Below are positions 2,985 to 57,513 of a DNA stretch of 64,000 nt, piece by piece. The notes beneath the pieces were generated by a model, which saw nothing but the letters and a program-made list of their open reading frames with translations, searched no databases and was not told the origin of the DNA. Source of the stretch: Kiritimatiellia bacterium (GTDB lineage Bacteria > Verrucomicrobiota > Kiritimatiellia > CAIQIC01 > Lenti-01); assembly GCA_017527155.1 (NCBI GenBank), contig JAFXQI010000027.1, positions 12,628 to 76,627 on the forward strand. Reading direction: 5' to 3'. Made by a program: the position numbers and the translations under genes. Every line of letters starts with the position of its first letter. Positions within the stretch are counted from its first letter, which is position 1.

Positions 2985-4035
2985 CGGTCCAGGGTCGGGG
3001 GATGCCGCCCGTGGTAGGGCGAGCACTCCGTGCGAGCCGCCGGGTCGCTTGCCCCGGCTCGCTCGGAGAGCTCGCCCTACCCTCGCGGGAAACCAACCCC
3101 GGCGGTGTGCTGCCAAGTGGTTTTCATGGGCGTTTGCGTGGTGGAAAAAGGAGAAAATGTCATGTATTTTCCGTAATCTCAAATGATGTTCGGCAGGAAG
3201 GCAAAAAGGGGGCCAGGCGAACCGTTTGGCGCGGCCACCGACGGCGGCGGGGTTAGGTCGGGGGATGTGGTGTTCTCCGCCCGCCCGCGGTGGTGTGGTA
3301 GGGCGAGCACTCCGTGCGAGCCGCCGGACCGCCTGCCCCGGCTCGCTCGGAGAGCTCGCCCTACCCTCGCGGGCAACCAACCCCGGCGGCGTGTTGCCGG
3401 GTGGTTTTCATGGGCGTTTGCGTGGTGGAAAACGGAGATAATGTCATGTCTTTTCCGTAATCTCAAATGATGGTCGGCAGGAAGGCACAAGGAGGGCCAG
3501 GCGAACCGTTCGGCGCGGTCGCCGACGGCGGCGGGGTTAGGTCGGGGGATGCGGTCTTCCCCGCCCGCCCGCGGTGGTGGGGCGAGCACTCCGTGCGAGC
3601 CGCCGGGTCGCTTGCCCCGGCTCGCTCGGAGAGCTCGCCCTACCCTCGCGGGCGACCAACCACGGCGGCGTGTTGCCGGGTGGTTTTCATGGGCGTTTGC
3701 GTTGTGGAAAACGGAGAAAATGTCAGGTCTTTTCCGTAATCTCAAATGATGGTCGGCAGGAAGGCAAAAAGGAGGGCCAGGCGAACCGTTCGGCGCGGTC
3801 GCCGGCGGCGGCGGGGTTAGGTCGGGGGATGCGGTCTTCCCCGCCCGCCCGTGGTGGTGTGGTAGGGCGAGCACTCCGTGCGAGCCGCCGCGCCGCCTGC
3901 CCCGGCTCGCTCGGAGAGCTCGCCCTACCCTAGCGGGCGACCAACTACGGAGGGGTGTTGCAGGGTGGTTTTCATGGGCGGTTGTATGGTGGAAAATGGA
4001 GAAAATGTCATGTATTTTCCGTAATCTCACGTGAT
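2985..4035. repeat. Tandem array of about 3.7 copies of a ~284-bp unit. Each unit carries a ~70-bp imperfect-palindrome hairpin element, a TTTTCCGTAATCTCA motif and an SD + 9-codon micro-ORF (MSCIFRNLK).
   Basis: GTAGGGCGAGCACTCCGTGCGAGCCGCC...CGGCTCGCTCGGAGAGCTCGCCCTACC recurs at ~3013, 3296, 3580 and 3858. AAAGGAGAAAATGTCATGTATTTTCCGTAATCTCAAATGATG recurs in every unit. Confidence 0.85.
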
Positions 4036-4084
4036 GGATCGGCAGGGGGGCACCAGGCGAAAAACGGGACCGCGGGGAGGCGGG

Positions 4085-5654: not shown

Positions 5655-6578
5655 TCAGCGGGGGGCGGGTTCGGGGGCGCCGAGGGTGGTGGGGTAGTTG
5701 TGGGAGGGGGGGAGGTTGGGGGCGGTGAGTTTGCCGGGGGCGTCGGGGTCGGGCTCGAAGCGCATGCCGCCGGTGACGGTGACGGCGCCTTCGGGGGAGC
5801 GCACGAGGCGGATGGAGCTGGAGGTGCCGACGTAATACTCGGTTCCGCGGGGTTCGCCGTTGCGGGTGAACATGGCGTGGGAGAAGCGGTCGGGCTGGAA
5901 TTGGTGGAGGACGTGGAAGACGCCCGCGGAGTCGAGTTCGAGGGCGGGCGGGATGAAGCGGATGAGGCTGCCGAGGTCGACGGCGCAGAGGCAGTAGCCG
6001 CTGGCGGGGTCGTCGAGACGGAAGAAGAGGCGGTCGCCGCGGTCGCGGTTGAGGGAGCGCAGGGAGACTTTGCGGCCGGTACCGGCGGTGGGGATGCCGT
6101 AGGTGCGGGTGAGGATTTCGAGGCCGGGGAGGACTTCGAGGGAGAGGCGGCGGCCGGAAAAGCGCATTCCGCCGAAGGCGACTTCGGGCTGGAGCATGTA
6201 GGATTGGCCGCGGACGACGCGGTAGGCCTGGAGGATGTCCACGGTGACGGTGCGGGATTCGCCGTCGGGGACCAGGAGGGGCTCGGCCAGAAGGGGCTTG
6301 CCGCTCGCGCGGACGTAGGAGGAGGGGTCGTCTTCGACGGTGAAGAGGAGCCGGGCGTTGCCGGTGCCGGGCGCGAAGTCGAGGGGGACGCCGGTGTAGT
6401 TGGCGATGGTGACGTCGGCGCGGATGGGTTCCATCAGGAGGGTGCGGTTGTGGGCGAGGGTCCAGTCGAGTTCGATTTGGGCGAGGGCGGGGAGGGGGAG
6501 GAGGAAGAAGAGGAGGGATAGGACGACTAGAGCGGATTCAAAAATAGTGTGGCCGCAAGCCGTTGTCCCACCAGCCAT
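5655..6578 (-). CDS. Hypothetical secreted protein, with the start chosen at an internal Met that gives a signal peptide
   Basis: The ORF 5655..6827 reads through repeat sequence at its 5' end. MAGGTTACGHTIFESALVVLSLLFFLLPLPALAQ begins at 6578 and looks like a signal peptide. Confidence 0.4.
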   Translation of the reverse strand: MAGGTTACGHTIFESALVVLSLLFFLLPLPALAQIELDWTLAHNRTLLMEPIRADVTIANYTGVPLDFAPGTGNARLLFTVEDDPSSYVRASGKPLLAEPLLVPDGESRTVTVDILQAYRVVRGQSYMLQPEVAFGGMRFSGRRLSLEVLPGLEILTRTYGIPTAGTGRKVSLRSLNRDRGDRLFFRLDDPASGYCLCAVDLGSLIRFIPPALELDSAGVFHVLHQFQPDRFSHAMFTRNGEPRGTEYYVGTSSSIRLVRSPEGAVTVTGGMRFEPDPDAPGKLTAPNLPPSHNYPTTLGAPEPAPR

Positions 6579-6740
6579 TTCCCACTGCGGACGCGCAGAA
6601 GCGCGTCCCTCCCCGTGGAGAGCGCAACGGGAGGGTCGCGCTTCCGCGCGACCTTGTGGTGGGAAAACGTCTGGGAAGCTACAGAAAAACTTAAACCGAT
6701 CCAAGACGGGGAGGACGGGGAGGACGGGACGGGGAAAAAG

Positions 6741-6804
6741 TTTTCCAATGGTTGGAAAAAAAGTTTCCAATGGTTGGAAAATTTTTTTCCAATGGTTGGA
6801 AAAC
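6741..6804. repeat. Array of 3 copies of the 19-bp palindrome TTTTCCAATGGTTGGAAAA with ~22-bp period, read as a candidate operator or protein-binding array
   Basis: Direct reading. It is AT-rich in GC-rich DNA. The same palindrome is arrayed at 47.6 kb and 57.4 kb. Confidence 0.7.
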
Positions 6805-6839
6805 TTTGGGGCTTGAAGATTGGTCATGGCGGGGGCGGG

Positions 6840-7580
6840 TCAGCGGCCGACGGCGAGGCGGGAGGCGGCGCGTTCGGGGAGGCCGGCTTCGCGGATCTTG
6901 GCCTGGGCGCCCGCGATGTCGTATTCGACGCGGCGGAGTTCGACGACGTTCGCCGCCATGTCGTAGATGGCGTAGGCGGCGCGCGGGTCGCCGTCGCGCG
7001 GCTGGCCGACGGAACCGACGTTGATGAAGTATTTGCGGCCGGCCACGATCTGCAGGCGGTTGTAGAGGCCGCCGCGGACGATGCCCGCCTTCTCGAACGC
7101 CAGCGGGACGTGGGTGTGGCCGAAGAAGCAGACGGAGCACATCTGGTAGGCGAAGTTGGCCTCGGCTTCGAGTTTGTCGAAGACGTAGCCCCACATCTCG
7201 GGGTTGTCCAGGGTGCCGTGGACCATCATGAAGGTCTCGACGCCGCGGGAGTAGCGGAGGGAGCGGAGCCATCCGCGTTCGGCGTCGTCGAGCTGCCGGC
7301 GGGTCCATTTGACGACGTCGGCGGCGAGGGGATGGAAGCCGGTCAGGGGGTCGTCGTAGGCGCAGTAGTGGTCGTGGTTGCCGCGGACGACGGCGTCGCC
7401 CGCCAGCTCGCGGACCTTCGCCAGGCACCACTTGGGGTCGGCGTTGTAGCCGACGACGTCGCCGACGCACGCGTAGCGCTCGACGCCCTGGGATTCGGCG
7501 TCGGCCAGGACGGCCTCGAGCGCTTCGCGGTTGGCGTGGACGTCGCCCAGGATCGCGTACTTGAGGCCCCGCATCATCAT
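6840..7580 (-). CDS. Calcineurin-like metallophosphoesterase (YfcE/MJ0936 family)
   Basis: MMMRGLKYAILGDVHANREALEAVL...VVRGNHD...FFGHTHVP motifs. Its start overlaps the stop of the upstream gene. Confidence 0.8.
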   Translation of the reverse strand: MMMRGLKYAILGDVHANREALEAVLADAESQGVERYACVGDVVGYNADPKWCLAKVRELAGDAVVRGNHDHYCAYDDPLTGFHPLAADVVKWTRRQLDDAERGWLRSLRYSRGVETFMMVHGTLDNPEMWGYVFDKLEAEANFAYQMCSVCFFGHTHVPLAFEKAGIVRGGLYNRLQIVAGRKYFINVGSVGQPRDGDPRAAYAIYDMAANVVELRRVEYDIAGAQAKIREAGLPERAASRLAVGR

Positions 7581-9871: not shown

Positions 9872-10522
9872 ATGCACATGAAACACAGCAACTTCCTCGC
9901 CTGCCTGCTGGCCCTCGCGACCGTCGCGGTCGCGCCCTCCGCGTTGGCCGGTGACCACCCCTTGTTCAGCATCGGCCTCGGCGGACAGTACTGGCTCGTC
10001 AAGGATGCCAAGGATGTCCTCGACGAAAACGGCCTGTGGGGCGGGAACATCCTCTTCCGCATCCAGCCCGTCGAATACATCGGAATCGACCTGCGGGCCG
10101 GTGCGTCCGGAGCCTGGGACACCGAATCCTGGCATGGTCCCCGCGGACGCAAGTACGAAGAGACCGCGACGTTCATGTGCTGCCCGGTCGAGGCCGGCCT
10201 GGTCCTGATCATCCCGATCGGCGACCGGTTCCAGATCTACGGCGGAGGCGGGGTCGGCTACTACTATTACGACATCGACATCAAGACCACCTCCCACCGG
10301 CACGGCCACTCCTACCGATCCGAATGGCACGACCACATCGACCTCGAGGACGACGTGGGCTGGTATGCGCTCGGGGGCCTGAAGATTTCCCTGGCGCCCC
10401 ACTTCGCGCTGTTCGGCGAAGCCCGCTACACCGGTACCGAAACCCGCTTCGAGGATGCCGACGACATCAAGATCGATTGCAGCGGCGTTGCCTTCCAGGC
10501 CGGCTTCATGTTCGATTTCTGA
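9872..10522 (+). CDS. Outer-membrane beta-barrel protein (OmpA-like / porin family)
   Basis: Signal peptide MHMKHSNFLACLLALATVAVAPSALA, alternating amphipathic strands, and a C-terminal GFMFDF with terminal Phe. Confidence 0.7.
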   Translation: MHMKHSNFLACLLALATVAVAPSALAGDHPLFSIGLGGQYWLVKDAKDVLDENGLWGGNILFRIQPVEYIGIDLRAGASGAWDTESWHGPRGRKYEETATFMCCPVEAGLVLIIPIGDRFQIYGGGGVGYYYYDIDIKTTSHRHGHSYRSEWHDHIDLEDDVGWYALGGLKISLAPHFALFGEARYTGTETRFEDADDIKIDCSGVAFQAGFMFDF

Positions 10523-10585
10523 GTGACCCGACCATCCGCGCAGGCAACGGCTCCGCCCCCCGGGCGGGGCCGTTTCCGTGCCCCT

Positions 10586-11521
10586 CTACCGTTCCGGCGG
10601 ACGGCGGCGTTCCAGCGTCGAGAGCCAATGCCGGAGCCGGTGTTGCAGATGAAGGACGCGGCCGTCCGGGTTTTCCTCCGCGAGAACACGGAGGATGGCC
10701 GCCTTCGTCGCCTCCGTCCGCTCTTCCGTCGCATGGGCGCTCCACTCATGCGAGATTCCAGAAAAACATGTGTGTTCCCTTCTGTTTTCTGCTCCTGCCC
10801 GCCGTCTCCCTCTCCCCCTCCGAACGGTGACGAGGCGCACGATGCCCAGCTTGGCTTCGACGGTACGGACGAGCGAGGCCAGCGACCGGTTCTCGCGGAG
10901 GATGGCGGCGAGACGGTGGCGGGCGGTGGAGAACGGCGCGGCGAGAGCGGTGGGGAGGGAGCGGTCGGCGGGGATGCCGTCCATCACCCATTCGAGGGGA
11001 ATGCGGTCGTCGAGGGAGAGGAGTTGGCGGAGGCGTTGGGCGGTTTTCTTGTAGCGCATGACCGTGGAATAGGGGACGGCGACGCGGCGGTCGGAGAGCC
11101 ATTGCTTGACGCCGCCGGGGTTCGACCGGATGACGGTCTTGCCGTTGCGGAGGGTGCGGCGGGCGATGGTTCGGTCGAGCGTGGGATCGAGGTCGGCCAG
11201 GCGGGAGCCGAGGCGCAGGCGTGTCTCCAGGGTGCGCGGGTCGGCGGTCCAGAGGTCTTCGAGGTCGGCGGGGGTGGGCGTGCCGCGGAGGGAGGGGGAT
11301 TCGGGGCGCCTTTCGCGGAGGCGGGCCCGGCGGCGGAGTTCGCCGATGGCCCAGGCGCCGATTTCGGTGACGGCAAAGGCGGCGAGGACGGCCGGGGTGA
11401 GGGCGAGGACGACCAGCGGGGCGTTGCGGCCGCCGGCGGCGTTGATGTCGCGGACCGCGCCGCCGATGGCGCCGAGCGCGCGGCCGGTGTTGTCGAGGAC
11501 GTTGGAGAGGTGGGTGTTCAT
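10586..11521 (-). CDS. Hypothetical membrane-anchored protein, paralog of 43094..43942
   Basis: Shared blocks with the 43-kb paralog: SLRGTPTPADLEDLW/SLRGAPTAAELAADCG, RLRLGSRLADLDPTLDR, YSTVMRYKKTAQRLRQLL. Start taken at ATG (MNTHLSNV); the listed ORF start is TTG. Confidence 0.55.
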   Translation of the reverse strand: MNTHLSNVLDNTGRALGAIGGAVRDINAAGGRNAPLVVLALTPAVLAAFAVTEIGAWAIGELRRRARLRERRPESPSLRGTPTPADLEDLWTADPRTLETRLRLGSRLADLDPTLDRTIARRTLRNGKTVIRSNPGGVKQWLSDRRVAVPYSTVMRYKKTAQRLRQLLSLDDRIPLEWVMDGIPADRSLPTALAAPFSTARHRLAAILRENRSLASLVRTVEAKLGIVRLVTVRRGRGRRRAGAENRREHTCFSGISHEWSAHATEERTEATKAAILRVLAEENPDGRVLHLQHRLRHWLSTLERRRPPER

Positions 11522-13395: not shown

Positions 13396-14144
13396 AGAAG
13401 CGCCGCCTGGACGTGCTGGTCGCCGCGCGCGGCCTCGCCGAGAGCCGCGAAAAGGCCCAGCGGCTCATCCTCGCCGGCGAAGTGCTCGTCGACGACGCGC
13501 CCGCCGGCAAGCCCGGCCACGAATATCCCGAGGACTGCGCCATCCGCGTCCGGCATCCCGAACGCTACGTCGGGCGCGGCGGACTCAAGCTCGACGGCGC
13601 CTTCGAGTCGTTCGCGGGGTTCGACCCGACGGGGGTGGTTTGCGCCGACGTCGGCGCCAGCACCGGCGGCTTCACCGACTGCCTCCTCCAGCACGGCGCG
13701 GCCAAGGTGTACGCCATCGACGTCGGCCACGGCCTGTTGCATCCGCGCATCGCCAACGACCCGCGCGTCGTCGTCATGGATGGCGTCAACGCCCGCAACC
13801 TCCAGGCCGCCGACCTGCCCGAAGCCGTCGATTGCGCCGTCACCGACGTCTCGTTCATCTCCCTCAAACTCATCCTTCCCGCCATCGACCGCATCCTGCG
13901 TCCCGGCGGCCAGGTCGTCGCCCTCATCAAGCCCCAGTTCGAAGCCGGACGCGAAGACGTCGGCCGCGGCGGCGTCGTTCGCGACGAAGCCGTCCGAGCC
14001 CGCGTCGTCGAGGAAATCCGCGCTTTCGGGACGGGAGAGGTCGGCTGGGAGTGGCTTGCCTGCCGCGAATCGCCCATCAAGGGGCCCGCGGGCAACGTGG
14101 AGTTCTTGAGCTGGTGGAGGAAGAAGGAGGGGGGGGCCAACTAG
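13392..14144 (+). CDS. tlyA: TlyA family rRNA (cytidine-2'-O)-methyltransferase
   Basis: S4 domain N-terminus (RLDVLVAARGLAESREKAQRLI) plus FtsJ-like MTase (CADVGASTGGFTDCLLQHGAAKVYAIDVGHG). The conserved tlyA-nadK order is kept. Confidence 0.85.
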   Translation: MKKRRLDVLVAARGLAESREKAQRLILAGEVLVDDAPAGKPGHEYPEDCAIRVRHPERYVGRGGLKLDGAFESFAGFDPTGVVCADVGASTGGFTDCLLQHGAAKVYAIDVGHGLLHPRIANDPRVVVMDGVNARNLQAADLPEAVDCAVTDVSFISLKLILPAIDRILRPGGQVVALIKPQFEAGREDVGRGGVVRDEAVRARVVEEIRAFGTGEVGWEWLACRESPIKGPAGNVEFLSWWRKKEGGAN

Positions 14145-14185
14145 ATATCTAGATATCTAGATATCTAGATTTCTAGGTATCTAGG
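14141..14185. repeat. (CTAGATAT)3-CTAGATTTCTAGGTATCTAGG palindromic repeat overlapping the tlyA TAG stop. It places stops in all six frames.
   Basis: Direct reading. CTAG is otherwise rare in this GC-rich DNA. Related TCTAGATATCTAG copies lie at 42013-42050 and 60024-60040, each at a TAG stop. Confidence 0.7.
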
Positions 14186-45854: not shown

Positions 45855-45962
45855 TGGTGCGATGGTTTTCCAGCCCCACAGGCAACCATCCAACCCGCGA
45901 ATCATCCACCCATCCACCCATCAAACTATCAAACTATCAAACCATCCAACCATCCAACCATC
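45855..45962. repeat. gatA-gatB intergenic imperfect palindrome/microsatellite built from CCATC(A/C)AAC(T/C) 9-mers. Its left arm overlaps the gatA 3' end.
   Basis: Left arm tggatggtgcgatggtttgatggtgcgatggtt. Right arm catcaaactatcaaactatcaaaccatccaaccatccaaccatc. Confidence 0.6.
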
Positions 45963-47390
45963 ATGACCTACATCGCCTCCATCGGCCTCGAAGTCCACGT
46001 CCAGCTCAAGACGCGCACCAAGATGTTCTGCTCCTGCCCCGCGCACCGCGAAGACGACCCGCCGAACACCAACGTCTGCCCCGTCTGCCTGGGCCTGCCC
46101 GGCGCCCTGCCGGTACCCAACCGCGAAGCCATCCGCAAGACCGTCAAGACCGGCCTCATGATGGGTTCCACCATCTCCCTGCGCAGCCGCTTCGACCGCA
46201 AGAACTACTTCTATCCCGACATGCCCAAGAACTACCAGATCACCCAGCAGGAGCGCCCCCTCTGCATCGGCGGCGGCCTCGAGATCGAAGTCAACGGCAA
46301 AAAGAAATACATCCGCCTCAACCACATCCACCAGGAAGAAGACGCCGCCAAGATCACCCACCTCGAGCACTCCTCCGAGATCGACTACAACCGCGCTTCC
46401 ACCCCCCTCATGGAGATGGTCACCGAGCCCGACATGTCCACCCCCGACGAAGCCATCGCCTTCCTGACCGCCCTGCGCGAAATGCTCATCTATGCCGGCA
46501 TCAGCGAATGCGACCTCGAGCGCGGCCACATGCGCTGCGACGTCAACTCCTCCATCCGACCCGCCGGAACCGACCGCCTCGGCGTCAAGTGCGAGATCAA
46601 GAACATGAACACCTTCCGCGGCATCCACCGCGCCCTCGAGTACGAACTCCGCCGCCAGCAATCCGTCCTCGAGAGCGGCGGCACCCTCCGCCAGGAAACC
46701 CGCCGCTGGGACGACGAAGCCGGGGCCACCTTCCCCATGCGCTCCAAGGAATACGCCCACGACTACCGCTACTTCAACGAACCCGACCTCCCGCCCGTCG
46801 TCCTCGACCAGGCCACAATCGACCAATGGCGCACCGAGATCCCCGAACTCCCGCGCGCCCGCCGCGCCCGGTTCGTCGCCGACTACGGCCTGCCCGAATA
46901 CGACGCCGGCGTCCTGACCGCCGACCGTGCCATCGCCGACTGGTACGAAGCCGCCGCGCGCGCCTCCAAAAACCCCAAAGCCGTCTCCAACTGGGTCATG
47001 GGCGAACTCCTCCGAGCCCTGGGCGAAAAAGGCCTTTCCATCACCGACGCCAAGATCACGCCCGCCGCCCTGGCCTCCCTCCTCGACCTCCTCGACAAAA
47101 AGACCATCAACGGCCCGGCCGCCAAGGAAGTCTTCCAGATCCTCTTCGACCAGGGCGGCGACCCCGCCGAAATCGTGAAAGCCAAAGGCCTTGCCCAGGT
47201 CAGCGACACCGGCGCCATGGAAACCTTCGCCGAGCAGGCCATCGCCGCCAACCCCAAATCCGTCGACGACTACCGCAGCGGCAAACAAGCCGCCCTCATG
47301 TACCTGGTCGGCCAAGTCATGAAACTCTCCCGCGGCAAAGCCAACCCCCAGCTCGCCGCCGAAATCCTCCGCTCCAAACTCGCCCCGTAA
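45963..47390 (+). CDS. gatB: Aspartyl/glutamyl-tRNA amidotransferase subunit B
   Basis: MTYIASIGLEVHVQLKTRTKMFCSCP, and the C-terminal GatB/YqeY domain. Confidence 0.9.
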   Translation: MTYIASIGLEVHVQLKTRTKMFCSCPAHREDDPPNTNVCPVCLGLPGALPVPNREAIRKTVKTGLMMGSTISLRSRFDRKNYFYPDMPKNYQITQQERPLCIGGGLEIEVNGKKKYIRLNHIHQEEDAAKITHLEHSSEIDYNRASTPLMEMVTEPDMSTPDEAIAFLTALREMLIYAGISECDLERGHMRCDVNSSIRPAGTDRLGVKCEIKNMNTFRGIHRALEYELRRQQSVLESGGTLRQETRRWDDEAGATFPMRSKEYAHDYRYFNEPDLPPVVLDQATIDQWRTEIPELPRARRARFVADYGLPEYDAGVLTADRAIADWYEAAARASKNPKAVSNWVMGELLRALGEKGLSITDAKITPAALASLLDLLDKKTINGPAAKEVFQILFDQGGDPAEIVKAKGLAQVSDTGAMETFAEQAIAANPKSVDDYRSGKQAALMYLVGQVMKLSRGKANPQLAAEILRSKLAP

Positions 47391-47424: not shown

Positions 47425-47545
47425 CTTCCAGACAGGTGGGGCGAGCTCTCCGAGCGAGCCGTTCCAACCGATTGAGCGGCTCGCACGGAGTGCTCGCCCC
47501 ACCACGGGGCGGCCACCGCTCCAACGCCGTTCGCCGAAGCGGAAT
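47425..47545. repeat. 122-bp repeat containing the imperfect-palindrome hairpin element. It is the left copy of a direct-repeat pair.
   Basis: ~95% identical to 49265-49386: cttccagac-ggtggggcgagctctccgagcgagccgttccaaccg-ttgagcggctcgcacggagtgctcgccccaccacggggcggccaccgctccaacgccgttcg-cgaagcggaa. Confidence 0.8.
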
Positions 47546-47595: not shown

Positions 47596-47729
47596 TTTTC
47601 CAATCATTGGAAAACCGCCGAAAAATTTTTCCAATCATTGGAAAATTCCGGCCATTTTTTCCAACCATTGGAAAAATGTTTTCCAATCATTGGAAAACTG
47701 GCGTACAATTTTTCCGATCATTGGAAAAC
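47596..47729. repeat. Array of 5 copies of the 19-bp palindrome TTTTCCAATCATTGGAAAA with ~25-30 bp period, immediately upstream of a small ORF
   Basis: Direct reading. Same palindrome as at 6741-6804 and 57410-57513. Confidence 0.75.
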
Positions 47730-47740
47730 GGGAAACGGAC

Positions 47741-48052
47741 ATGGACAACAAGGAAACCGGGCAGGACCGGCCAGAGGGCAACTGGGCCGCGGACATGGGG
47801 GTGGGGTGTCTGCTGGATGTGGCGTTGCTGGTCGGGTTGGTGGTGGTGCTGGACTCGGACCGGGGCGCCCAGGCCATCGTCTACATGCTGTTGCTGGGAG
47901 TGCCGTCGCTGATCGCCCGCTGGCTCCTCCACCGGGCCGGCATCCTGCATCGGACGCTGGGCGGATGGGGCGGACGGCTGCTGGGACCGGGGTTCGTGCT
48001 GCTGGCGGTCGCGCTCGCGCATCTCGCGCCGTTGCCGCTGGAGGAGGACTGA
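47741..48052 (+). CDS. Small hypothetical membrane protein (103 aa)
   Basis: MDNKETGQDRPEGNWAADMGVGCLLDVALLVGLVVVLD... has two hydrophobic helices and starts directly after the palindrome array. It might be a shadow ORF. Confidence 0.35.
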   Translation: MDNKETGQDRPEGNWAADMGVGCLLDVALLVGLVVVLDSDRGAQAIVYMLLLGVPSLIARWLLHRAGILHRTLGGWGGRLLGPGFVLLAVALAHLAPLPLEED

Positions 48053-49264: not shown

Positions 49265-49386
49265 CTTCCAGACTTGGTGGGGCGAGCTCTCCGAGCGAGC
49301 CGTTCCAACCGTTTGAGCGGCTCGCACGGAGTGCTCGCCCCACCACGGGGCGGCCACCGCTCCAACGCCGTTCGTCGAAGCGGAAA
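49265..49386. repeat. Right copy of the 122-bp hairpin-element direct repeat
   Basis: See 47425-47545. Confidence 0.8.
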
Positions 49387-49468: not shown

Positions 49469-49927
49469 ATGAAAGACGACTTGCTATCGGCCCCCGTGGA
49501 AGGCGGAAGGGAAATCCTTTCGGGCCTGGCCGCCTGGTTGGCGGGACTCACGTGGGGCTACGCCCTCTTGACCGGGGACATGCTCTGGGAGCTGCGAGGG
49601 GGCGAATGGATGGTGGGCTGGCTGGGAGCGGTGTTCCTGCCGCCCGGCATGTCGGGCTGGGGCTGGCTGGCGTTCCCGTTCGAGCTCGTGATGCTGTACG
49701 GGGCGGTCTGGCGGGGATGGAACGCCTGTCTCGTGATCGGCCTGCTGGCGCTGGCGGCGGGGCTCCTCGCGCTCCCCGAATACGGCCCCTGGTACCTCCT
49801 GCGCCTGGTCCTGCCCTTGGTGCTCGTCCTTTTCGGCCTCGCCGTGGAGCGTGGCTGGTTCATCCCGCGCCGCCGTCCCCGTCCGCCCGCGCCGCCGTCC
49901 ACCGAAGAGGCGCCCACGGGCCGATAG
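49469..49927 (+). CDS. Hypothetical membrane protein
   Basis: 152 aa with 4 hydrophobic helices rich in W/G/L. No recognisable family. Confidence 0.4.
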   Translation: MKDDLLSAPVEGGREILSGLAAWLAGLTWGYALLTGDMLWELRGGEWMVGWLGAVFLPPGMSGWGWLAFPFELVMLYGAVWRGWNACLVIGLLALAAGLLALPEYGPWYLLRLVLPLVLVLFGLAVERGWFIPRRRPRPPAPPSTEEAPTGR

Positions 49928-49971
49928 GGCGATTCAGGAAAAAGTGTGGCAGCGGCCCATGTCGTCGCCAC

Positions 49972-50010
49972 CTTTCCCAGTGCGGACGCGCAGAAGCGCG
50001 TCCCTCCCCG
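49972..50010. terminator. GGACGCGC-AGAA-GCGCGTCC perfect hairpin within a 38-bp repeat, between convergent genes. Read as a likely bidirectional terminator.
   Basis: 8-bp GC stem with tetraloop. It has no U-tract, which is common in high-GC genomes. A second copy of the 38-bp repeat sits at 6578-6614. Confidence 0.4.
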
Positions 50011-50595: not shown

Positions 50596-53500
50596 TCACG
50601 TCCTGCGCAGGGTGAGGACGGGGAGAAGGATGGCGGATTCTTCGGTGGCGTCCTTGGCTTTCCAGGCGACGATGAAGCCGACGTGGGCTTCGCGGACGGC
50701 ATAGCCCCGGGCTTCGCGCTTGCGGATTTCGGCCAGGGCGGCCTTGGAGAGGCGGGCCACCCGCACGCCGGTGGCGGACACCAGGTCGCCGTCTTCGTAC
50801 GCCAGCGGGCTGCCGCTGCGGAGGCGGAAGATGTCCTTCTTGCGGTCCTTCGAGAAGTCCAGCCAGACGTCCTTGTGGGAAAGGTGCAGGGTGAGTTCGG
50901 GCGGTTCGGGATAGGGGGTGTCGTCCCGGAGGAAGCGGGCGCCGGGCGTCCGGCACGCCCCGAAGAGGCCGCTGTTGCAGTGGATGTACAGGCGGTTCCG
51001 GGCGCGGGTGATGCCGACGTAGAGCTTGCGCCGGGCGTCGTCGTCCGCCGCCGCTTCGTCCCGCAGCAGCATGTACACGGTGTCGAATTCCCGCCCCTTG
51101 GCCTTGTGGATGGTCGAGACGAAGACGGTCCCCTTGCCGCCGCCGCAGAAGTCTTCCAGCCTGGACTCGAAGGCGAATTCCCGCAAATCGCTCCGGTAGC
51201 GGATCCGCTGGACGCTTTCGAACTGCCGGAAGAACTCGCGGACGGCGTCGATGCAGGCGCTGTCGGCGTAGCGCGAAAGGGTTTCCTCCTTGGCTTCTTC
51301 CCATGCGTCGGCGCCGATGGCGGGCGTCGCGGTCTTCCGGTCGATGCGCCGGAGGAAGTATCGCACTTCGGCCAGGTCGGAGAACCGGAATCCGTCCACC
51401 GACTGGATGAGCCGCGCGGGAATGCCGGCCCGCGCCAGGGCGCCCGCCGCCTGGGCGGCTTCGTCGTTGGTGCGGACGAGGACGCAGGCGGTTTCGCCGC
51501 GCCAGGTGCTTTTCACCTGTTCGACGAGGGGCAGCACCATCTCCGCGGAGGCGTGCCGGACGATTTCCACCTCCCCGGGGTCGTCGCGGACGGCGATGCC
51601 CGGACGGCGCTTCATCCGGTTGCCGATGGTTTGGGCGAAGGCGTTGGCGAATTCGACGATGGCGCGGGCGCTGCGGTGGTTTTCGACCAGCTCGTAGCGG
51701 CCTTCCGGCCCGCCGCCGGCGAGCGCGGCCATGTAGCGGCTGTCGGAGCCGCGGAAGGCGTAGATGTTCTGGTCGTCGTCGCCCACGGCGATCACGCGCA
51801 TTTCCTCGTTGGCCCGCATCAGGGCCCGCACCAGGGCGTACTCGCCGGCGTCCATGTCCTGCGCCTCGTCGATGACCAGCACCGACTTGGCGATGCGGTT
51901 CGGCTCCACCCCGCCGCTTTCGATCAGCCGGACGGCCTCGCCGACCACGTCCCCGGCCTCTTCCAGGTTGCCGACGCGTCCCAGGAGGTCGAAGCTGTAG
52001 GAGTGGAAGGTCTTGATTTCGACGAAGTGGGCGGCGTTGCCGACGAGGTCGAGCAGGCGGCGCTTGAATTCGGTGGCGGCGGCGCGCGAGAAGGTCAGCA
52101 TGAGCAGCTGCTCGTGCTTGACGTCTTCGAGCAGCAGCAGCGAGGCGAGCTTGTGGACCAGGACGCGGGTCTTGCCGCTGCCGGGGCCGGCGGCGACGAC
52201 GATGCGCGCCGACCGCTTGTCGCCGATGATGGCCCGCTGGGTGTCCGAGAGCGCGCCTAAGAGCTGTTGGTGCTTGCGCGGGGTGATGTTCCTGCCGATT
52301 TCCGCCAGGCGATCGCCCTTGAAGTACTTGGCGATGAACTTGCGGAAATCCATCTGGAAGTAGTCCCGCACGTACCGCAGGGCGGCGGCGTAGTCCTTCA
52401 CCATCAGGTTGGCGTATTCGCCGACGATGTGGATCTGCCGGATCTTCTGCTTGTAGAACTCGTCGAGCATCCGGTAGTCCTCGACCTTGTACCGGTTTTT
52501 CATGTCGGCGAGACGGTGGATTTCCATGGCGTTGTAGATGACCAGGAAGCCGCCCTCCAGCTTCATGGCGCCGATTTTCGAGAGGTAGAGCAGCGCGTCC
52601 TCGATTTCGTCGATGCGGAAGGGGCCGCCCTCGGCGAACAGCGCGCGTTCCCGCCGCGCGGAGAGTTTCTCCAGCAGCTCCGTGACCGAGAACTGGATCG
52701 GCACCGCCCCGCCGCCGCCGCCGGAACCGGACGCGGCGCCGGCCGGCGCGTGGAGTTCGTGGACGGCGAAGCGGCAGATTCCGATGCGGCGGGCCTGTTG
52801 CCGGAGCGTCCGCTCCGCATCCAGCGCCGTCACCATGCGGAGCCGCCCCGTAGCGGCGTCTTCCTGCTTGCGGATGATGGATTTGACGGTCAGGAAGTAG
52901 AGGAGCGTGCGGATGTTTTTCACCGAACTGCCGGCGATGCCGCCTTCGAGGGCCCGCTCGTTGAGGGCCTTGAGGGTCAGGTCGGCCTCCTGCCGGGCGA
53001 TCTCGCCGAGCAGGAAGCGCTCGAGCGCGGCGAAGCGTTCCAGGGTCCTGGAGGTGGCGGCCTCCGAGCGGTCGATCCAGGCGGACAGGTCGCGCGAGTC
53101 GGCGAGGATGCCTTCCTGGCGCATGCGGGTGATGGCGCCGATGACGGCGGCCTTGTCCAGCCCGAGGATGTCGGCGAGGTAGTCCACCCGCGAATCGGCT
53201 TCCCCGTCCTGCCGCGCCCCGGCGATCTGCTTGCTCGAAATCAGCGACTTGATGATCCGGATGGCGTCCTGCCGCCCCCCGTCGTCGAACAGGGGCGATT
53301 CCGCGATGCGGCGGCGCGCCTCGTCCATGTTCCGGACCATGATGCCGGTGGCGAAGACGTGCGGGACGTTGTTGCCGCGGCGCACGTAGCCGGCCTCCTC
53401 CAGGGCGGCGACGGCGGTCCGCACGCGGGTCTCGACGTCCGGCACCTCGTCGTTCCAGCCCGCCTGCCGCGCGATTTCGAGGGCGCTGCAGGCCACCTGC

Positions 53501-55452
53501 GGGCGCTGGCGGGTGAGGGTCTTGATGGCGCTCCAGACCTGCTGGATTTCGCTCAGGCTCAGCTTGGTCTGGTTGAGCAGGATGAAGTGCTTGTCCAGGT
53601 CCTGGTCGCTGTAGAGCACGTGGCACTTGGCGGAGGTCTGCGGGTCGCGGCCGGCACGGCCGGCCTCCTGGACGTAGTTTTCGAGCGAGTCGGAGATGTC
53701 GTAGTGCACCACCAGGCCCACGTCCTTCTTGTCCACGCCCATGCCGAAGGCGGACGTGGCGACGATGGCGCGGACTTCGTTGAGGATGAAGGCGTTCTGG
53801 TTCGCGATCTTCTCGGCGGGGTCCATCTTGCCGTTGAACGGCAGCGCGGGGATGCCGTCCCGCGTCAGCTTGTCCGCGAGGTCGCGCGTCCGCTTCGTGC
53901 GCGAGACGTACACGATGGCCGGGCATCCGCCGCCGAGCAGCAGGCTGCGCAGGTGCCGGTACTTCTCCTCCTCGGTGTCCGCGTGGATGACCGAATACTG
54001 CAGGTTTTCCCGGGTGGCGGACGACGCGAAGAGCCGCAGGTCCAGCCCCAGCTTCGCCCGGAAGTAGTCGCGGATGTCGGAGACCACCTTCTGCTTCGCC
54101 GTCGCCGTGAAGCACGAGACGGGAATCGCCGCACCCTCCCCCTTCTTCTCCCGCAGCTTGCGGATGAAGTCGCCGATGTAGAGGTAATCGACGCGGAAAT
54201 CCTGCCCCCACGCGGAAAAACAGTGCGCCTCGTCGATGACGAACCGCACCACGTTGCGCGAGAGCAGCAGCTTCTCGACCGTCTTCGACCGCAGCATTTC
54301 CGGCGAGATGTACAGCAGCGACGCCGATCCGTCCGCCACCCGCCCGATCGCCTCCGCGCGGCTCAGCGGGTCGAGCAGGCCGTTGACGGTGACCGCTTCC
54401 GTGACGCCCCGCGCCGCCAGGTTGTCCACCTGGTCCTTCATCAGCGACTGCAAGGGCGAAATGACCACCGTCAGGCCGTGCACCGCCCGCCCCTGCATGA
54501 GCGCCGGCAGCTGGAAGGTGAGCGACTTGCCGCCGCCCGTCGGGAAAATGGCCAGCAGCGACTCGCCGTCCACCGCCGCCTGCACCGCCCGCTCCTGCAT
54601 GGGCTCGCCGTCGAAGAGGCGGAAGGCGTCGTAGCCGAAGATGCTCCGCAGCCCCTTGTGGATGTCCAGCTTGTCGCGGCAGTACGCGCACCCTTCCCGG
54701 CAGGGCGTGCCGCACAGGGCCTTCAGGACATGCTCCACGCGCGGGAATTGGTGCAGCACCCACGGCGGCGTCGCGGAACTCCCGTCGCCCGTGTTGACCA
54801 GCGCCAGCGCGTAGGCCAGTTCGCGCGGCATGGCGTCCGCGAGCCCCGCCAGGTCCGCGTGGGCGCAGATCCGCCCCGCGAAGGCTTTTTCGACGAGATC
54901 CGCGGCATCCCCACCGCCTGGCGCCATCCCCAGGAAGGCGAAAAACCCGCCGAACTCCTCGAAGGGCGACAGCAGCGCGCGGAAAACCGCCTGCAACTCC
55001 CCCGGCAGCGCCCGGAATGCATTCACCTCGTCGAAGAAAAGGTCCCGCGCCTTCTTCGCGTCGTTGAGCGGATTGTTCAGCTCCTCGGTCTGCAGCTTGT
55101 CGTCCTTCAGCAGCCGGTGGTAGGGCCGTTTCGGGAACAGGAGGGGCGAAAGATACAGCGTGTCGATGGCCGGTTTGCCGCGGATTCCCGGAACGGGACC
55201 CGCCAGGTACTTCAAATCGTGGTGCACGATGTTGTGCCCGCAGAGGAACCCGGCGCCGGCCGTGAACCGCGCGAACTCCGCCGCCGAAGCCGTGTGCAAC
55301 TTCCGGTTCGCCCCCTGGCACGCCCCGTAATCATGGATCCGCCCGTCCGCCACCCCGACTTCGACATCGATGAACGCGACCTCGTCGAACCGCCCGCCGC
55401 CGTCCCCGCCCAACGCCTTGTTGCCCTGCACTTCCATGTCGCACCCGTCCAT
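50596..55452 (-). CDS. ~1,618-aa tri-domain protein: N-terminal DnaQ-like DEDDh 3'-5' exonuclease + RecQ-family helicase core + C-terminal UvrD/Rep-like SF1 helicase
   Basis: Exo motifs FIDVEVGV (I), GHNIVHHDLKYL (II), NPLNDAKKA (III). RecQ motifs LAIFPTGGGKSLTFQLPAL and VIDEAHCFSAWGQDFR. SF1 motifs VVAAGPGSGKTRVL, VIDEAQDM, VENHRSARAIV, TIHKAKGREFDTVYML, LYVGITRARNRL. Confidence 0.8.
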   Translation of the reverse strand: MDGCDMEVQGNKALGGDGGGRFDEVAFIDVEVGVADGRIHDYGACQGANRKLHTASAAEFARFTAGAGFLCGHNIVHHDLKYLAGPVPGIRGKPAIDTLYLSPLLFPKRPYHRLLKDDKLQTEELNNPLNDAKKARDLFFDEVNAFRALPGELQAVFRALLSPFEEFGGFFAFLGMAPGGGDAADLVEKAFAGRICAHADLAGLADAMPRELAYALALVNTGDGSSATPPWVLHQFPRVEHVLKALCGTPCREGCAYCRDKLDIHKGLRSIFGYDAFRLFDGEPMQERAVQAAVDGESLLAIFPTGGGKSLTFQLPALMQGRAVHGLTVVISPLQSLMKDQVDNLAARGVTEAVTVNGLLDPLSRAEAIGRVADGSASLLYISPEMLRSKTVEKLLLSRNVVRFVIDEAHCFSAWGQDFRVDYLYIGDFIRKLREKKGEGAAIPVSCFTATAKQKVVSDIRDYFRAKLGLDLRLFASSATRENLQYSVIHADTEEEKYRHLRSLLLGGGCPAIVYVSRTKRTRDLADKLTRDGIPALPFNGKMDPAEKIANQNAFILNEVRAIVATSAFGMGVDKKDVGLVVHYDISDSLENYVQEAGRAGRDPQTSAKCHVLYSDQDLDKHFILLNQTKLSLSEIQQVWSAIKTLTRQRPQVACSALEIARQAGWNDEVPDVETRVRTAVAALEEAGYVRRGNNVPHVFATGIMVRNMDEARRRIAESPLFDDGGRQDAIRIIKSLISSKQIAGARQDGEADSRVDYLADILGLDKAAVIGAITRMRQEGILADSRDLSAWIDRSEAATSRTLERFAALERFLLGEIARQEADLTLKALNERALEGGIAGSSVKNIRTLLYFLTVKSIIRKQEDAATGRLRMVTALDAERTLRQQARRIGICRFAVHELHAPAGAASGSGGGGGAVPIQFSVTELLEKLSARRERALFAEGGPFRIDEIEDALLYLSKIGAMKLEGGFLVIYNAMEIHRLADMKNRYKVEDYRMLDEFYKQKIRQIHIVGEYANLMVKDYAAALRYVRDYFQMDFRKFIAKYFKGDRLAEIGRNITPRKHQQLLGALSDTQRAIIGDKRSARIVVAAGPGSGKTRVLVHKLASLLLLEDVKHEQLLMLTFSRAAATEFKRRLLDLVGNAAHFVEIKTFHSYSFDLLGRVGNLEEAGDVVGEAVRLIESGGVEPNRIAKSVLVIDEAQDMDAGEYALVRALMRANEEMRVIAVGDDDQNIYAFRGSDSRYMAALAGGGPEGRYELVENHRSARAIVEFANAFAQTIGNRMKRRPGIAVRDDPGEVEIVRHASAEMVLPLVEQVKSTWRGETACVLVRTNDEAAQAAGALARAGIPARLIQSVDGFRFSDLAEVRYFLRRIDRKTATPAIGADAWEEAKEETLSRYADSACIDAVREFFRQFESVQRIRYRSDLREFAFESRLEDFCGGGKGTVFVSTIHKAKGREFDTVYMLLRDEAAADDDARRKLYVGITRARNRLYIHCNSGLFGACRTPGARFLRDDTPYPEPPELTLHLSHKDVWLDFSKDRKKDIFRLRSGSPLAYEDGDLVSATGVRVARLSKAALAEIRKREARGYAVREAHVGFIVAWKAKDATEESAILLPVLTLRRT

Positions 55453-56159
55453 TCGCCCCAAGAAGCTACAAGGAGAGCCCGCCCCCCGTCAACGCCATTT
55501 GCCCCGCTTTCGCCTTGGGGCCAAGTCGACCTCGGAAAGGAGGAATGCCGGAGCGCGGGCGGCCCGCCCGCTTTCCTTTCGCAAATCGACCGCATCCCCT
55601 CACTATCCCCTCCCTTCCGCCCCACTCCCAAGGCCCCATGGTTTTCCATGGTGGTGAGGATGCATGGAATCATGGAGAAAACAAGGGGTTTCCCGTAATT
55701 GCAAATGAGTCTCCCCGGCCTCCGTTTTGTGGTCCGGGCGGCAAGCGGGAGGAAAGAACCGACATGGATGTCTCGAATGCCGCTTCGCGGACACGAATGG
55801 CTTCTACGAGGAAGGGTGGATTGTGTAAGTGAAAGCGGGCGGGCTGGGAGCGCGGGCGTCCCGCCCGCGAAGCTTTTGGAAAGGGGAAAACAAGCGAAAA
55901 GGCCCATGTTTTCCATAATCTCGCATCCAGCGGCGCGGCTGAAAGACCGTACCGCATCTTTTCACTTTTCACTGGTCACTTGTCACTGCGCCCGAAGGGC
56001 GCTACGGCATCCTGCCGCGCCCTTGCGGATGGAGAGCGGGAGGGGAGAAAAAGACAAACAGGACACAGGGGACAAGGTTGCGGGAGGGGAGAGGGAGGGA
56101 TGGGGAAGCGGGCAGGCCGCCCGCGTTCCGATAAAGGGGACTTGAAGGGAAACAGGCCG

Positions 56160-56993
56160 CTACTTCAGGTATTTGCGGGTGCCGACTTCGGAGAGGATGC
56201 GCATTTGCTGGATGGCGATGGCATTGAGTTTCTGCAGGCGCTGGGACTGGGGGAGGCCGTCGTGGATCAGGACGGCATTGATGTTTTCCAGGTTGGATAG
56301 GCAGATGAGCTGGTCGACGGTGGCATGGTCGCGCTGGTTGCCCTTGAGGGAAGGATTCGCTTCCTGCCACTGCCGGTGGGTTTGTCCGAAGAGGGCGACG
56401 TTGAGCACGTCCGCTTCGCTGGCGTAAATGACGCTCGTCTGGGCACGGGAAACGGCGGGCGGCACGAGATTGCGCAGGATGGCGTCGGTGTGGATGCGGT
56501 AGTTGATCTTGGCGAGTTCTCGCTTGGCCGACCAGCCGACGAGTTCCTGCTCCCGGGCTTTGAGGCGCTGGAATTCCCTGACGATGTAGATCTTGAATTC
56601 CGCCGAAATCCACATCGCGAACTCGAAGGCAATGTCTTTGTGCGCGAATGTCCCGCCATAACGCCCGGCCCTCGAAACCAGGCAGGCGGCGTTCGTGCGT
56701 TCCGTGAATTCCTGCACCCCGATCTTGAAGGAGTGGAGGCCAGCCTGGTTTCTAATTGTGGCGAATTCGCCATAATTGAAGGCCGGGTTGTAGATGCGTT
56801 CCCAGATGCCGATGTACTCCAGGGTATTGCGGTTGCGCAACCAGTCCGTGATGAAAAACTCGCCATCCTTCGCCTTGAGCATGTCGGTGAGGCAGATGTA
56901 GTCTTCGTCCCCGACTTTGGCCACGCGGACAAGGGTGCCGCGGATGTCGAGTTCTCCCGAGGTCTTTGGTGGCATGTTCGTGGGCTTTTGCAT
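56160..56993 (-). CDS. KilA-N domain-containing protein (phage/plasmid-type DNA-binding domain)
   Basis: LVRVAKVGDEDYICLTDMLKAKDGEFFITDWLRNRNTLEYIGIWE is the KilA-N fold. The gene is ~56-58% GC against a ~70% background. Confidence 0.8.
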   Translation of the reverse strand: MQKPTNMPPKTSGELDIRGTLVRVAKVGDEDYICLTDMLKAKDGEFFITDWLRNRNTLEYIGIWERIYNPAFNYGEFATIRNQAGLHSFKIGVQEFTERTNAACLVSRAGRYGGTFAHKDIAFEFAMWISAEFKIYIVREFQRLKAREQELVGWSAKRELAKINYRIHTDAILRNLVPPAVSRAQTSVIYASEADVLNVALFGQTHRQWQEANPSLKGNQRDHATVDQLICLSNLENINAVLIHDGLPQSQRLQKLNAIAIQQMRILSEVGTRKYLK

Positions 56994-57268
56994 GATTGGA
57001 ACTTTTCTGGATTCTTGGGGATGGCGTTGGGCGGCATCATGGCATGTTCCGTACTGGGTTCAAGCATAAAAGAGAACGTTTAGACAACAAATCGGGATTG
57101 TACGCAACGGTGCAGGTTCCGCAATGCGGGGAGAGCGCTGCAGGCGGGGAGTGGGCGTGGCTGAAAGCCGCACATCCCGAGTGGGGGATTGCAGTGGGGG
57201 GATTGGAGAGCAAGGGCGGGCCGTCCGCGTTCCGACCAAAAAGGCGAGGCGCCCGCGGGCCGGCGGGG

Positions 57269-57355
57269 TCACTCGTCGGGCATGGCGGCTTCGATGCGGT
57301 TGTCGAAGAGGGTGCAGTCGGCGAAGAAGTCGAGGCGGACTTCGCCGGTGGGGGC
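57269..57355. other. Displaced duplicate of the dnaB 3' end (last ~28 codons + stop), ~85% identical to 60501-60587. Read as an att-like target duplication.
   Basis: tcactcgtcgggcatggcggcttcgatgcggttgtcgaagagggtgcagtcggcgaagaagtcgaggcggacttcgccggtggg versus the dnaB end. The translated fragment PTGEVRLDFFADCTLFDNRIEAAMPDE matches PTGEVRLNFFADYTRFDNRIETASPDE. Confidence 0.75.
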
Positions 57356-57409
57356 GTCGATCCCGGCTTGGGTTTTGCACAATCCGGCAGCCCGGCGGGG
57401 GAGGGCGGG

Positions 57410-57513
57410 TTTTCCAATGATTGGAAAAAATTTTTCCAATGGTTGGAAAAAATGGGACGGATTTTCCAATGGTTGGAAAAAATTTTCGCGCATTTTCCAA
57501 TGATCGGAAAAGT
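57410..57513. repeat. Array of 4 copies of the 19-bp palindrome TTTTCCAAT(G/C)RTYGGAAAA
   Basis: Direct reading. Third array of this family. Confidence 0.75.

Follow-up and report, generated by a model that had tools for sequence, protein, structure and literature searches.

The question raised by this locus is why a short AT-rich palindrome should recur in tight tandem groups between the genes of a GC-rich bacterial chromosome, and what may keep it there. The window, by which we mean the whole 64-kb stretch of DNA that was analysed, has a GC content of ~68% and consists, outside the repeats, of housekeeping chromosomal DNA (dnaB, rplI, rpsR, ssb). Its genes were called with a GC3-seeded codon model, with which the ENA gene calls agree. 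Contigs identical to the window are present in several gut or rumen-type metagenome assemblies, and the GatB protein that it encodes is identical to that of a 'Kiritimatiellae bacterium' MAG.

Three arrays of a 19-bp palindrome

A search of the window with the pattern TTTTCCAATSATTGGAAAA, allowing up to three mismatches, gave 12 matches, all of which lie within three arrays (Table 1). No isolated copy was found in the 64 kb at this threshold, and 100 dinucleotide-preserving shuffles gave no match to the 19-bp palindrome (expected count 0), bearing out the original prediction that the repeat occurs only as arrays of three, five and four copies. The consensus of the 12 copies is wTTTTCCAA-K-S-M-TTGGAAAAw, where two conserved 8-bp arms, TTTTCCAA and TTGGAAAA, flank a centre of 3 nt. 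The centres in the window are TGG, TCA, CCA and TGA, with constraint on the middle base alone (G or C). The start-to-start periods fall into two discrete classes, 22 or 30–31 bp, and not into the continuous range of 22–30 bp that had been proposed.

Table 1. Positions of the arrays, their units and the companion motif in the window.
Feature	Sequence or composition	Position	Strand	Basis or remark
Array 1	three units, periods 22, 22	6741..6803	.	pattern search
Unit 1.1	TTTTCCAATGGTTGGAAAA	6741..6759	.	pattern search
Unit 1.2	GTTTCCAATGGTTGGAAAA	6763..6781	.	pattern search
Unit 1.3	TTTTCCAATGGTTGGAAAA	6785..6803	.	pattern search
Array 2	five units, periods 31, 30, 22, 31	47596..47728	.	pattern search
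Unit 2.1	TTTTCCAATCATTGGAAAA	47596..47614	.	pattern search
Unit 2.2	TTTTCCAATCATTGGAAAA	47627..47645	.	pattern search
Unit 2.3	TTTTCCAACCATTGGAAAA	47657..47675	.	pattern search
Unit 2.4	TTTTCCAATCATTGGAAAA	47679..47697	.	pattern search
Unit 2.5	TTTTCCGATCATTGGAAAA	47710..47728	.	pattern search
Array 3	four units, periods 22, 30, 31	57410..57511	.	pattern search
Unit 3.1	TTTTCCAATGATTGGAAAA	57410..57428	.	pattern search
Unit 3.2	TTTTCCAATGGTTGGAAAA	57432..57450	.	pattern search
Unit 3.3	TTTTCCAATGGTTGGAAAA	57462..57480	.	pattern search
Unit 3.4	TTTTCCAATGATCGGAAAA	57493..57511	.	pattern search
Companion motif	TGCACAATCCG	57376..57386	+	23 nt from array 3, pointing toward the array

Array 1 is flanked by two co-directional minus-strand genes, one for a metallophosphoesterase (6840–7580, −) and one for a secreted-looking hypothetical protein (5655–6578, −), and a strain-variable insert of 174 bp separates it from its downstream gene. 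Array 2 follows gatB (45963–47390, +), that is, the end of gatCAB, and stops 12 nt before the ATG of a 103-residue membrane ORF (47741–48052), behind which comes an Acyl_transf_3 gene; it is part of a ~1.9-kb segment with 110-nt direct repeats at its borders. Array 3 is found to the right of a KilA-N gene (56160–56993, −), in 1.5 kb of low-GC DNA that shows no clear sign of coding. A location upstream of hypothetical membrane-protein genes, as initially suggested for all three, is clear for array 2 only, while the suggestion that other repeat-family elements lie next to the arrays is correct for each of them. The flanks of the three window arrays are unrelated to one another and no conserved flank or element body was found around them. 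The companion motif near array 3 also stands 23–24 nt from the array at loci of rumen MAGs (twice at L050, and at L063, L071 and L091) and is specific to this lineage. As regards a small ORF beside TGCACAATCYG, the downstream peptides were not conserved among the loci compared.

In the rumen lineage to which the window belongs the arrays are intergenic and unstable. When orthologous sites in relatives were compared, as had been proposed at the outset, array 1 was present with fewer units in some strains and array 2 was missing altogether from one relative. Array 1 has three units in the window and in L200 and two in strains L201–L203, which lack exactly one 22-bp period (6760–6781, unit 1.2). 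The same three strains also lack the 174-bp MITE-like insert (6531–6704), a separate element that is the only true insertion polymorphism at array 1. L213, whose GatB is at least 90% identical, lacks the entire segment that bears array 2; in L213 the convergent spacer in front of the BOF gene, which is free of arrays in the window, holds an array of three units. No array was found near gatB in 80 more distant metagenomic gatB relatives, which indicates turnover. Intergenic arrays are thus born, grow and are lost rapidly, probably through slippage or unequal exchange of whole periods.

Spacing and symmetry of the unit

The anatomy of the repeat was investigated on a set of 424 units, from loci ascertained on exact pairs with periods of 19–37 bp. 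At these loci, the spacings between units with up to two mismatches were 20–23 bp (n = 24), 29–33 bp (n = 239) and 42–43 bp (n = 5), and there were no cases at 24–28 or 34–41 bp. The three classes match two, three and four turns of the helix. The period is specific to the genome: it is 31 bp in 19 of 19 cases in RZZM and throughout SKLK, and 32 bp in 21 of 22 cases in CAIVKH and in SCQF, and in the rumen MAGs and the window 22 bp is mixed with 30–31 bp. Arrays reach up to seven units. The inner spacers are barely more alike within arrays (identity 0.41) than between arrays (0.33), so it is their length that is conserved and not their sequence. The same spacing of 31–32 bp is seen in pairs created by substitution inside genes (see below) and cannot therefore be a by-product of module duplication; the period is selected rather than inherited through duplication.

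The logo of the unit is a 9-1-9 palindrome with A/T-rich flanks. Of the units in this set 99% have G or C at the centre, positions 8 and 10 are mostly complementary and ~77% of the ascertained units match at every one of the 14 specified positions. Where units deviate from the consensus they mostly do so on one side (129 one-sided against 15 two-sided deviations, nine of the latter being compensatory), and the flank extensions G(−1) and C(+1) fail to co-occur. Neither base-pair covariation nor extension of a hairpin was seen across the units. This pattern shows that the half-sites are conserved as duplex sequence and not as a hairpin. Lineages have their own 'dialects', which differ in the centre triplet and in a TTTCCAT/ATGGAAA variant. 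The centre base is constant within the arrays of some genomes, the window included (nine concordant, none discordant), which points to tandem duplication. The polarity of the centre base showed no association with the direction of the genes.

The repeat has the properties expected of a site for a symmetric dimer that binds cooperatively, side by side with its neighbours: the two-fold related half-sites are one turn apart and independently conserved, the units are spaced at integral turns and the length of the spacer, though not its sequence, is kept. Pairs located inside genes obey the same spacing rule.

Occurrence across the phylum and inside genes

To define the distribution, one genome per species was scanned for two exact units separated by 2–20 nt. 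This identified at least 113 loci in ~33 genomes, MAGs of Kiritimatiellota, with many loci each from many genomes. The listed loci, with GC contents of 51–70%, are labelled Kiritimatiellae, Kiritimatiellales, Pontiellaceae, Tichowtungia, Lentisphaerae, Verrucomicrobia or 'uncultured bacterium', and the two classes of the phylum in the NCBI taxonomy, Tichowtungiia (Tichowtungia) and Kiritimatiellia (Pontiellaceae), are both represented. The motif has decayed in the L212 lineage, and there are PVC relatives that are free of it. Two viral contigs also bear phased arrays. With at least 113 loci in ~33 genomes the motif is neither strain-specific nor the assembly artefact that would have been suspected had it been missing from other contigs.

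Coding and non-coding DNA both carry units, at densities of ~0.2–0.6 per kb, and each of the three reading frames is used. The cultured species Tichowtungia aerotolerans has ~0.5 units per kb. Two 21-kb regions, one from T. aerotolerans and one from a related MAG (L211), are unbiased in this respect since they were picked for mnmE and not for the motif; they contain 11 and 12 units, where ~0.2 were expected. All 23 of these units fall within called genes, as we read the gene tables, and some are identical at orthologous offsets in genes other than mnmE. Single isolated units are common in Tichowtungia-type genomes, so that any cooperativity between units would not be obligatory. A generic promoter element found uniformly in hundreds of promoters would, by the original prediction's own account, have counted against it; the motif comes close to this in being generic and genome-wide, but it is not a promoter element.

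Of 441 near-perfect units, 46 are deep inside high-scoring genes. In several genomes both single units and pairs 31–32 bp apart are found deep in genuine genes in all three frames, where they are translated as FPxLGK, FQxLE or SNxWK. The alignment of a pair in mnmE (L048) with 1xzp, a homologue of solved structure, is free of gaps, as is that of a pair in thiD (L066) with 7r8y, so these copies were created in place by substitution and not by insertion. The encoded peptides are retained in 120 MnmE orthologues (69–100% identical), including that of T. aerotolerans, and variation among them is essentially restricted to the residue that derives from the free centre triplet. When the mnmE DNA of L048, T. 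aerotolerans (L210) and L211 was compared, the units were at equal offsets in all three and employed the rare codons CCA, CTT and GGA. Considering only those codons that specify the same amino acid in all three sequences, 14 of the 15 with their third base in a unit arm were identical, against 61 of 300 elsewhere (Fisher p = 8e-9). These copies in the genes of other lineages are stable, unlike the intergenic arrays of the lineage of the window.

The palindrome is thus found phylum-wide and massively over-represented, it is constrained at the level of the DNA and its neighbouring copies follow a helical-turn rule. Its large excess, its presence in coding as well as non-coding DNA, its origin by substitution and its conservation in the clade place it among the genome-wide iterated words, and there is a real chance that it belongs to a new chromatin-like system. 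No account of the motif came to light when the literature was searched for its sequence, for palindromes or promoters of Kiritimatiellota and for iterated palindromes of PVC bacteria, and a long palindrome that combines phased arrays with conservation throughout a phylum and the overriding of synonymous codon choice appears to be undescribed.

What may maintain the word

The reading that we favour, although we would give it only an even chance, is that the arrays are phased sites for a putative symmetric dimeric protein, which would bind cooperatively throughout the genome in an architectural role like that of a nucleoid-associated protein. The three arrays in the window would then be local tandem clusters of the phylum-wide word, maintained as duplex DNA. 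One unit would accommodate one symmetric dimer of the putative sequence-specific DNA-binding protein, with the two half-sites one helical turn apart, and neighbouring dimers would touch on one face of the helix, so that copies would be tolerated just two, three or four turns from one another. Cooperative binding would have as its basic unit a dimer of dimers on a pair spaced by 31–32 bp, with longer oligomers on arrays of three to seven units. From the independence of gene context and the copy number, hundreds to thousands per genome, we infer that such sites would have an architectural or genome-marking role rather than control neighbouring genes. In the window's high-GC rumen lineage of Kiritimatiellia the word is confined to intergenic DNA, where it is amplified or lost as whole periods, probably by slippage or unequal recombination. 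Of the interpretations offered by the original prediction, a symmetric dimer site in helical register is retained, with 'nucleoid-associated' as the best fit; operators, xenogeneic silencing and the termini of mobile elements are not. Xenogeneic silencing is not supported, since the motif lies within core housekeeping genes and has been kept throughout the phylum.

Known architectural sites offer a partial parallel. The parS/ParB, matS/MatP, NBS/Noc and SBS/SlmA systems have tens of isolated sites limited to a chromosome domain, which serve an architectural function and are kept by a conserved partner protein. Like the motif described here, parS, matS, NBS and SBS are long, near-invariant palindromes found inside and between genes in wide clades, but they are not known to reach 0.2–0.5 per kb or to form phased arrays.

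Three observations keep us from putting the favoured reading above an even chance. No reader protein was found among the neighbours of the arrays: across the array-flanking genes there was no recurrent neighbour, no DNA-binding gene that recurred and no autoregulated transcription factor. The copies are also far closer to perfect than a transcription factor or a nucleoid protein would require, a trait that one would sooner associate with driven or copied sequences. Finally, intergenic arrays turn over fast and are not kept in the orthologous spacers of relatives, and this counts against it.

Copies more perfect than binding sites require are the classical signature of molecular drive, and a driven word is the main rival to protein-read sites, although it seems to us a distinctly less probable one. 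Here the palindrome would be uptake-signal-like (favoured by a receptor for DNA uptake) or HIP1-like (arising from biased methylation or repair) and would accumulate by substitution wherever it is tolerated, the individual sites having no function. The density, the presence of copies both between genes and, in every frame, within them, the origin by substitution and the near-perfect copies with lineage dialects all agree with this, and conservation at synonymous sites is expected under drive as well. However, neither uptake nor repair predicts spacings of two, three or four turns only, a genome-specific period of 31 or 32 bp, or arrays of up to seven units. To our knowledge the motif, with 14–16 specified bases, also exceeds the length of the known methyltransferase sites.

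The closest parallels to such a word are found in two systems. HIP1 is the highly iterated palindrome GCGATCGC of cyanobacteria (Elhai 2015, PMC4390886). It is likewise clade-wide and hugely over-represented, found in coding and non-coding DNA, made by substitution and replaced by alternates in particular lineages (PMC4390886), but it is GC-rich, has the 8-bp, methyltransferase-sized length of the known HIPs, is tied to orphan methyltransferases and shows neither tandem arrays nor a helical spacing rule, whereas the motif here is longer, AT-rich and found in phased pairs and arrays. The USS of Pasteurellaceae and DUS of Neisseriaceae also number hundreds to thousands of near-perfect copies at ~0.2–1 per kb, occur in all reading frames at tolerant positions of proteins and have family-level dialects, AT-rich flanks and intergenic inverted pairs (PMC2817400, PMC1939737). 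These uptake sequences are, unlike our motif, asymmetric 9–12-mers that are recognised at the cell surface and do not form phased arrays. We know of no report of competence in Kiritimatiellota.

The four remaining explanations each fail at least one direct test. The first of them, which we consider improbable, is a selfish extragenic repeat of the REP/BIME or MITE type, copied by a domesticated RAYT-type transposase, whose arrays would be clusters of insertions. In proteobacteria, REP/BIME and REPIN-RAYT elements take the form of imperfect, GC-rich palindromes of ~35 nt. They are species-specific and depend on RAYT transposases for their mobility, their location is strictly extragenic, and some REP/BIME units are bound by nucleoid proteins (IHF, gyrase). 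Palindromic units in extragenic arrays whose copy number varies between strains are common to both, as are gain and loss between close relatives, and the single centre base throughout the arrays of several genomes would also be consistent with copying. Truly mobile repeats are found nearby, and in co-directional spacers the arrays show a slight bias towards gene 3′ ends, being closer to the upstream stop codon in 42 cases and to the downstream start in 24. Other observations speak against this reading, and against the idea that the arrays are the terminal inverted repeats of a MITE or of the non-autonomous mobile element first suggested: flanks and spacers are not conserved, and the in-gene copies are ungapped relative to their homologues, with no change in length. 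Unlike the species-level REPs, the unit has been kept throughout a phylum whose GC contents span 46–70%, and it arises inside genes without insertion; with 46 of 441 units in genes, and all 23 in the two 21-kb regions, it is not strictly extragenic. Divergent spacers are not depleted of arrays, no transposase family was found among the 138 array-flanking genes, and the phasing would be left unexplained. The palindromic elements of Rickettsia are insertions of 100–150 bp that add residues to proteins. They resemble the units here in that a palindromic repeat is translated in frame within protein-coding genes, but our units replace existing codons without any change in length.

Marginally less probable again is the reading that the original prediction put first, in which the arrays are local operators through which a repressor or activator controls the adjacent small or membrane genes. 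Cooperative regulators of this kind include Lrp, with sites about three turns apart (pap, ilvIH), NrdR, with tandem boxes 31–32 bp apart, and the proteins of lambda-type operators; their sites are degenerate, form arrays of two to six and serve one promoter or a small regulon. The likeness is considerable, since here too palindromic dimer sites stand at integral helical turns, most often ~31–32 bp apart. Phased sites lie directly upstream of start codons at many loci, array 2 among them, and several arrays are just upstream of ordinary sigma-70-like −35/−10 pairs (TTGACA/TAnnnT). An array was also kept upstream in four cross-genome pairs of orthologues, against a rough expectation of ~1. In contrast to such operators, though, the sites here are near-perfect and number hundreds to thousands, regardless of promoters, and no coherent regulon emerges: the 138 genes downstream of arrays match 155 Pfam families with no more than three members per family. 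Spacers in the orientations −−, ++, −+ and +− bear arrays in the ratio 36:36:20:14, which is at the background frequency (129:132:80:44), so that convergent spacers are used as often as expected. Copies lie deep within housekeeping genes, and a MITE insertion is tolerated between array 1 and its gene. Look-alikes among regulator sites, namely the Irr ICE box (TTTAGAA-N3-TTCTAAA), the IclR/AllR half-site TGGAAA, the 9-1-9 boxes of Fur/DtxR and the 31–32-bp spacing of Lrp/NrdR, were considered, and none fits a genome-wide word.

A role at the level of RNA, as transcribed hairpins that act as terminators, RNase III or processing sites, or stability elements in UTRs and intercistronic spacers, is very improbable. 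Arrays often start 0–12 nt past stop codons and fill convergent spacers, the helices that they form when folded are long (z = −3 to −8), and array 2 contains one terminator-like match. A single unit is nevertheless a weak hairpin of −5.1 kcal/mol, the complementarity extends through the 'loop' with the centre fixed as G or C, and compensatory changes are not seen. A rule of helical-turn spacing would be meaningless for RNA, and arrays are also found in divergent spacers and within ORFs; for these reasons an intrinsic terminator was rejected. There was no match to a known RNA family of Rfam 15 over the whole window, and no tRNA or tmRNA in it. A CRISPR array, for which we took repeats of 23–55 bp with unique spacers of ~21–72 bp, is likewise rejected, the unit being 17–19 bp, the spacers 3–15 bp and the period 22 or 30–32 bp. 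Least probable of all is that the units supply −35-like hexamers or UP-like A/T tracts to tandem promoters: array 2 includes TTTCCA-18-TACAAT, and −10-like hexamers are found in the last spacer of L116, L087 and L055, but TAnnnT is not enriched next to genes (2 of 32 gene-proximal spacers, 18 of 402 others) and arrays occupy convergent spacers, at the background rate, and the interior of genes.

Returning to a word that is read by a protein, a more specific form of that reading is possible but rather less than evenly likely. The palindrome may be an undescribed genome-wide signal, in ~10^2–10^3 copies per genome, whose helically phased pairs or arrays are read by a protein specific to the phylum. 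Such a protein would mark or fold the chromosome, for instance for self-identification in uptake or defence or for the anchoring of domains or loops. This would constitute a new class of chromatin or 'genome word', distinct from HIP1, USS/DUS, REP and parS, whose signal would be strong enough to override synonymous codon choice. If a dedicated protein does read the word, chromosome organisation or self-recognition would have a major component, so far unseen, in an entire phylum of the PVC group, one that is important in the turnover of polysaccharides in the rumen, in sediments and in marine habitats. Alongside HIP1 and the uptake sequences the word would provide a third, mechanistically different example of an oligonucleotide kept in thousands of copies, even against codon preference. 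Since the word is long and near-invariant and is present in the cultured T. aerotolerans, which has a closed genome, a partner protein could be fished for and the spacing rule tested.

The arrays also have two practical effects. They break assemblies, and ORF callers are misled into running genes on across them.

Possibly mobile or recombining segments around the arrays

Two of the three arrays of the 19-bp palindromic word lie in or beside DNA that differs between strains or close relatives. Beside array 1 (6741-6803, three units) lies a GC-rich insert of 174 bp with nested hairpins, resembling a MITE or REP element. By strain comparison it is present in the window and in L200 and absent from L201-L203, strains of the window's species. 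The ATG at 6578, which gene callers use for the gene at 5655-6578, appears to be supplied by this insert. Array 2 (47596-47728, five units) lies with a 103-aa ORF and an acyltransferase gene in a segment flanked by the two 110-nt repeat copies. This whole segment is absent in a close relative (L213, at least 90% identical in GatB), which suggests a cassette that was acquired or excised when the 110-nt repeats recombined with each other.

The stretch from 55500 to 58500 has a low GC content (0.59 in 56-58 kb) and holds array 3 (57410-57511, four units) together with several 'GCGGCTGAAAGCCGC'-type hairpin repeats. The codon-position GC signal is absent over about 1.5 kb of it. It may be what is left of a mobile island, or an RNA locus.

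Features near the arrays and other repeats and genes (window positions unless a locus is named)
Feature	Position	Strand	Remarks
284-bp unit, tandem x3.7	3011-4046		between alpha-amylase and GT9 genes
174-bp insert	6531-6704		between array 1 and gene 5655-6578
Partial copy of 174-bp insert	49919-50010		before BOF gene; 81% identity over 97 bp
CTAGATAT x5.5, short tandem repeat	14141-14184		spacer before NAD kinase gene
CAACCATC x10, short tandem repeat	45883-45962		spacer between gatA and gatB
110-nt copies	47435-47544; 49276-49385		98% identical to one another; resemble part of 284-bp unit
1618-aa protein	50596-55452	minus	DEAD/Helicase_C module fused to UvrD/REP helicase module
KilA-N domain gene	56160-56993	minus	inside low-GC stretch
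TGCACAATCYG	57376-57386; L050 1826-1836 and 4923-4933; L063 3779-3789; L071 1705-1715; L091 3071-3081		L-numbers are rumen MAG loci
Cys-rich proteins	L034 1922-2293; L106 3316-3615		53% identical to each other

Motifs and reading frames at the array edges

The conserved motif TGCACAATCYG was found only in the window and in rumen-type MAGs, where a distance of 23-24 nt always separates it from an array end and it is oriented toward the array. No peptide conservation was found in the sequences beyond it. Loci L034 and L106, from different genomes, each encode downstream of an array a member of a family of small Cys-rich proteins (…CWE(Y/F)..CGR…GxCPA…CW…C…), for which there was no Pfam match.

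Stop codons are absent from the units in five of the six frames. In L201-L203, at the equivalent of window 6578-6827, the downstream gene is called through the array (322 aa versus 307 aa), and the window ORF at 5655-6827 (390 aa) is the product of the same gene-caller extension. Annotated start codons adjoining arrays in these genomes are unreliable.

The word in viruses and its decay in a relative

Phased arrays of three units are also present on two IMG/VR viral contigs (L208 3188-3580; L209 10588-10650), and thus the word is common to these hosts and their phages. The L208 array is translated, lying within a 130-aa ORF whose N-terminus resembles that of a 131-aa ORF of L209 (9257-9652; …DFPVVGK..EFSNHWKK..HFQSLEK…).

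In a lower-GC relative, the Kiritimatiellota MAG L212 (GC 0.46), three of the four units within mnmE (10001-11365) have decayed and a single unit remains in 14.7 kb. Some lineages are therefore losing the word, and L212 is a useful contrast genome for phylogenetic profiling of the putative reader protein.
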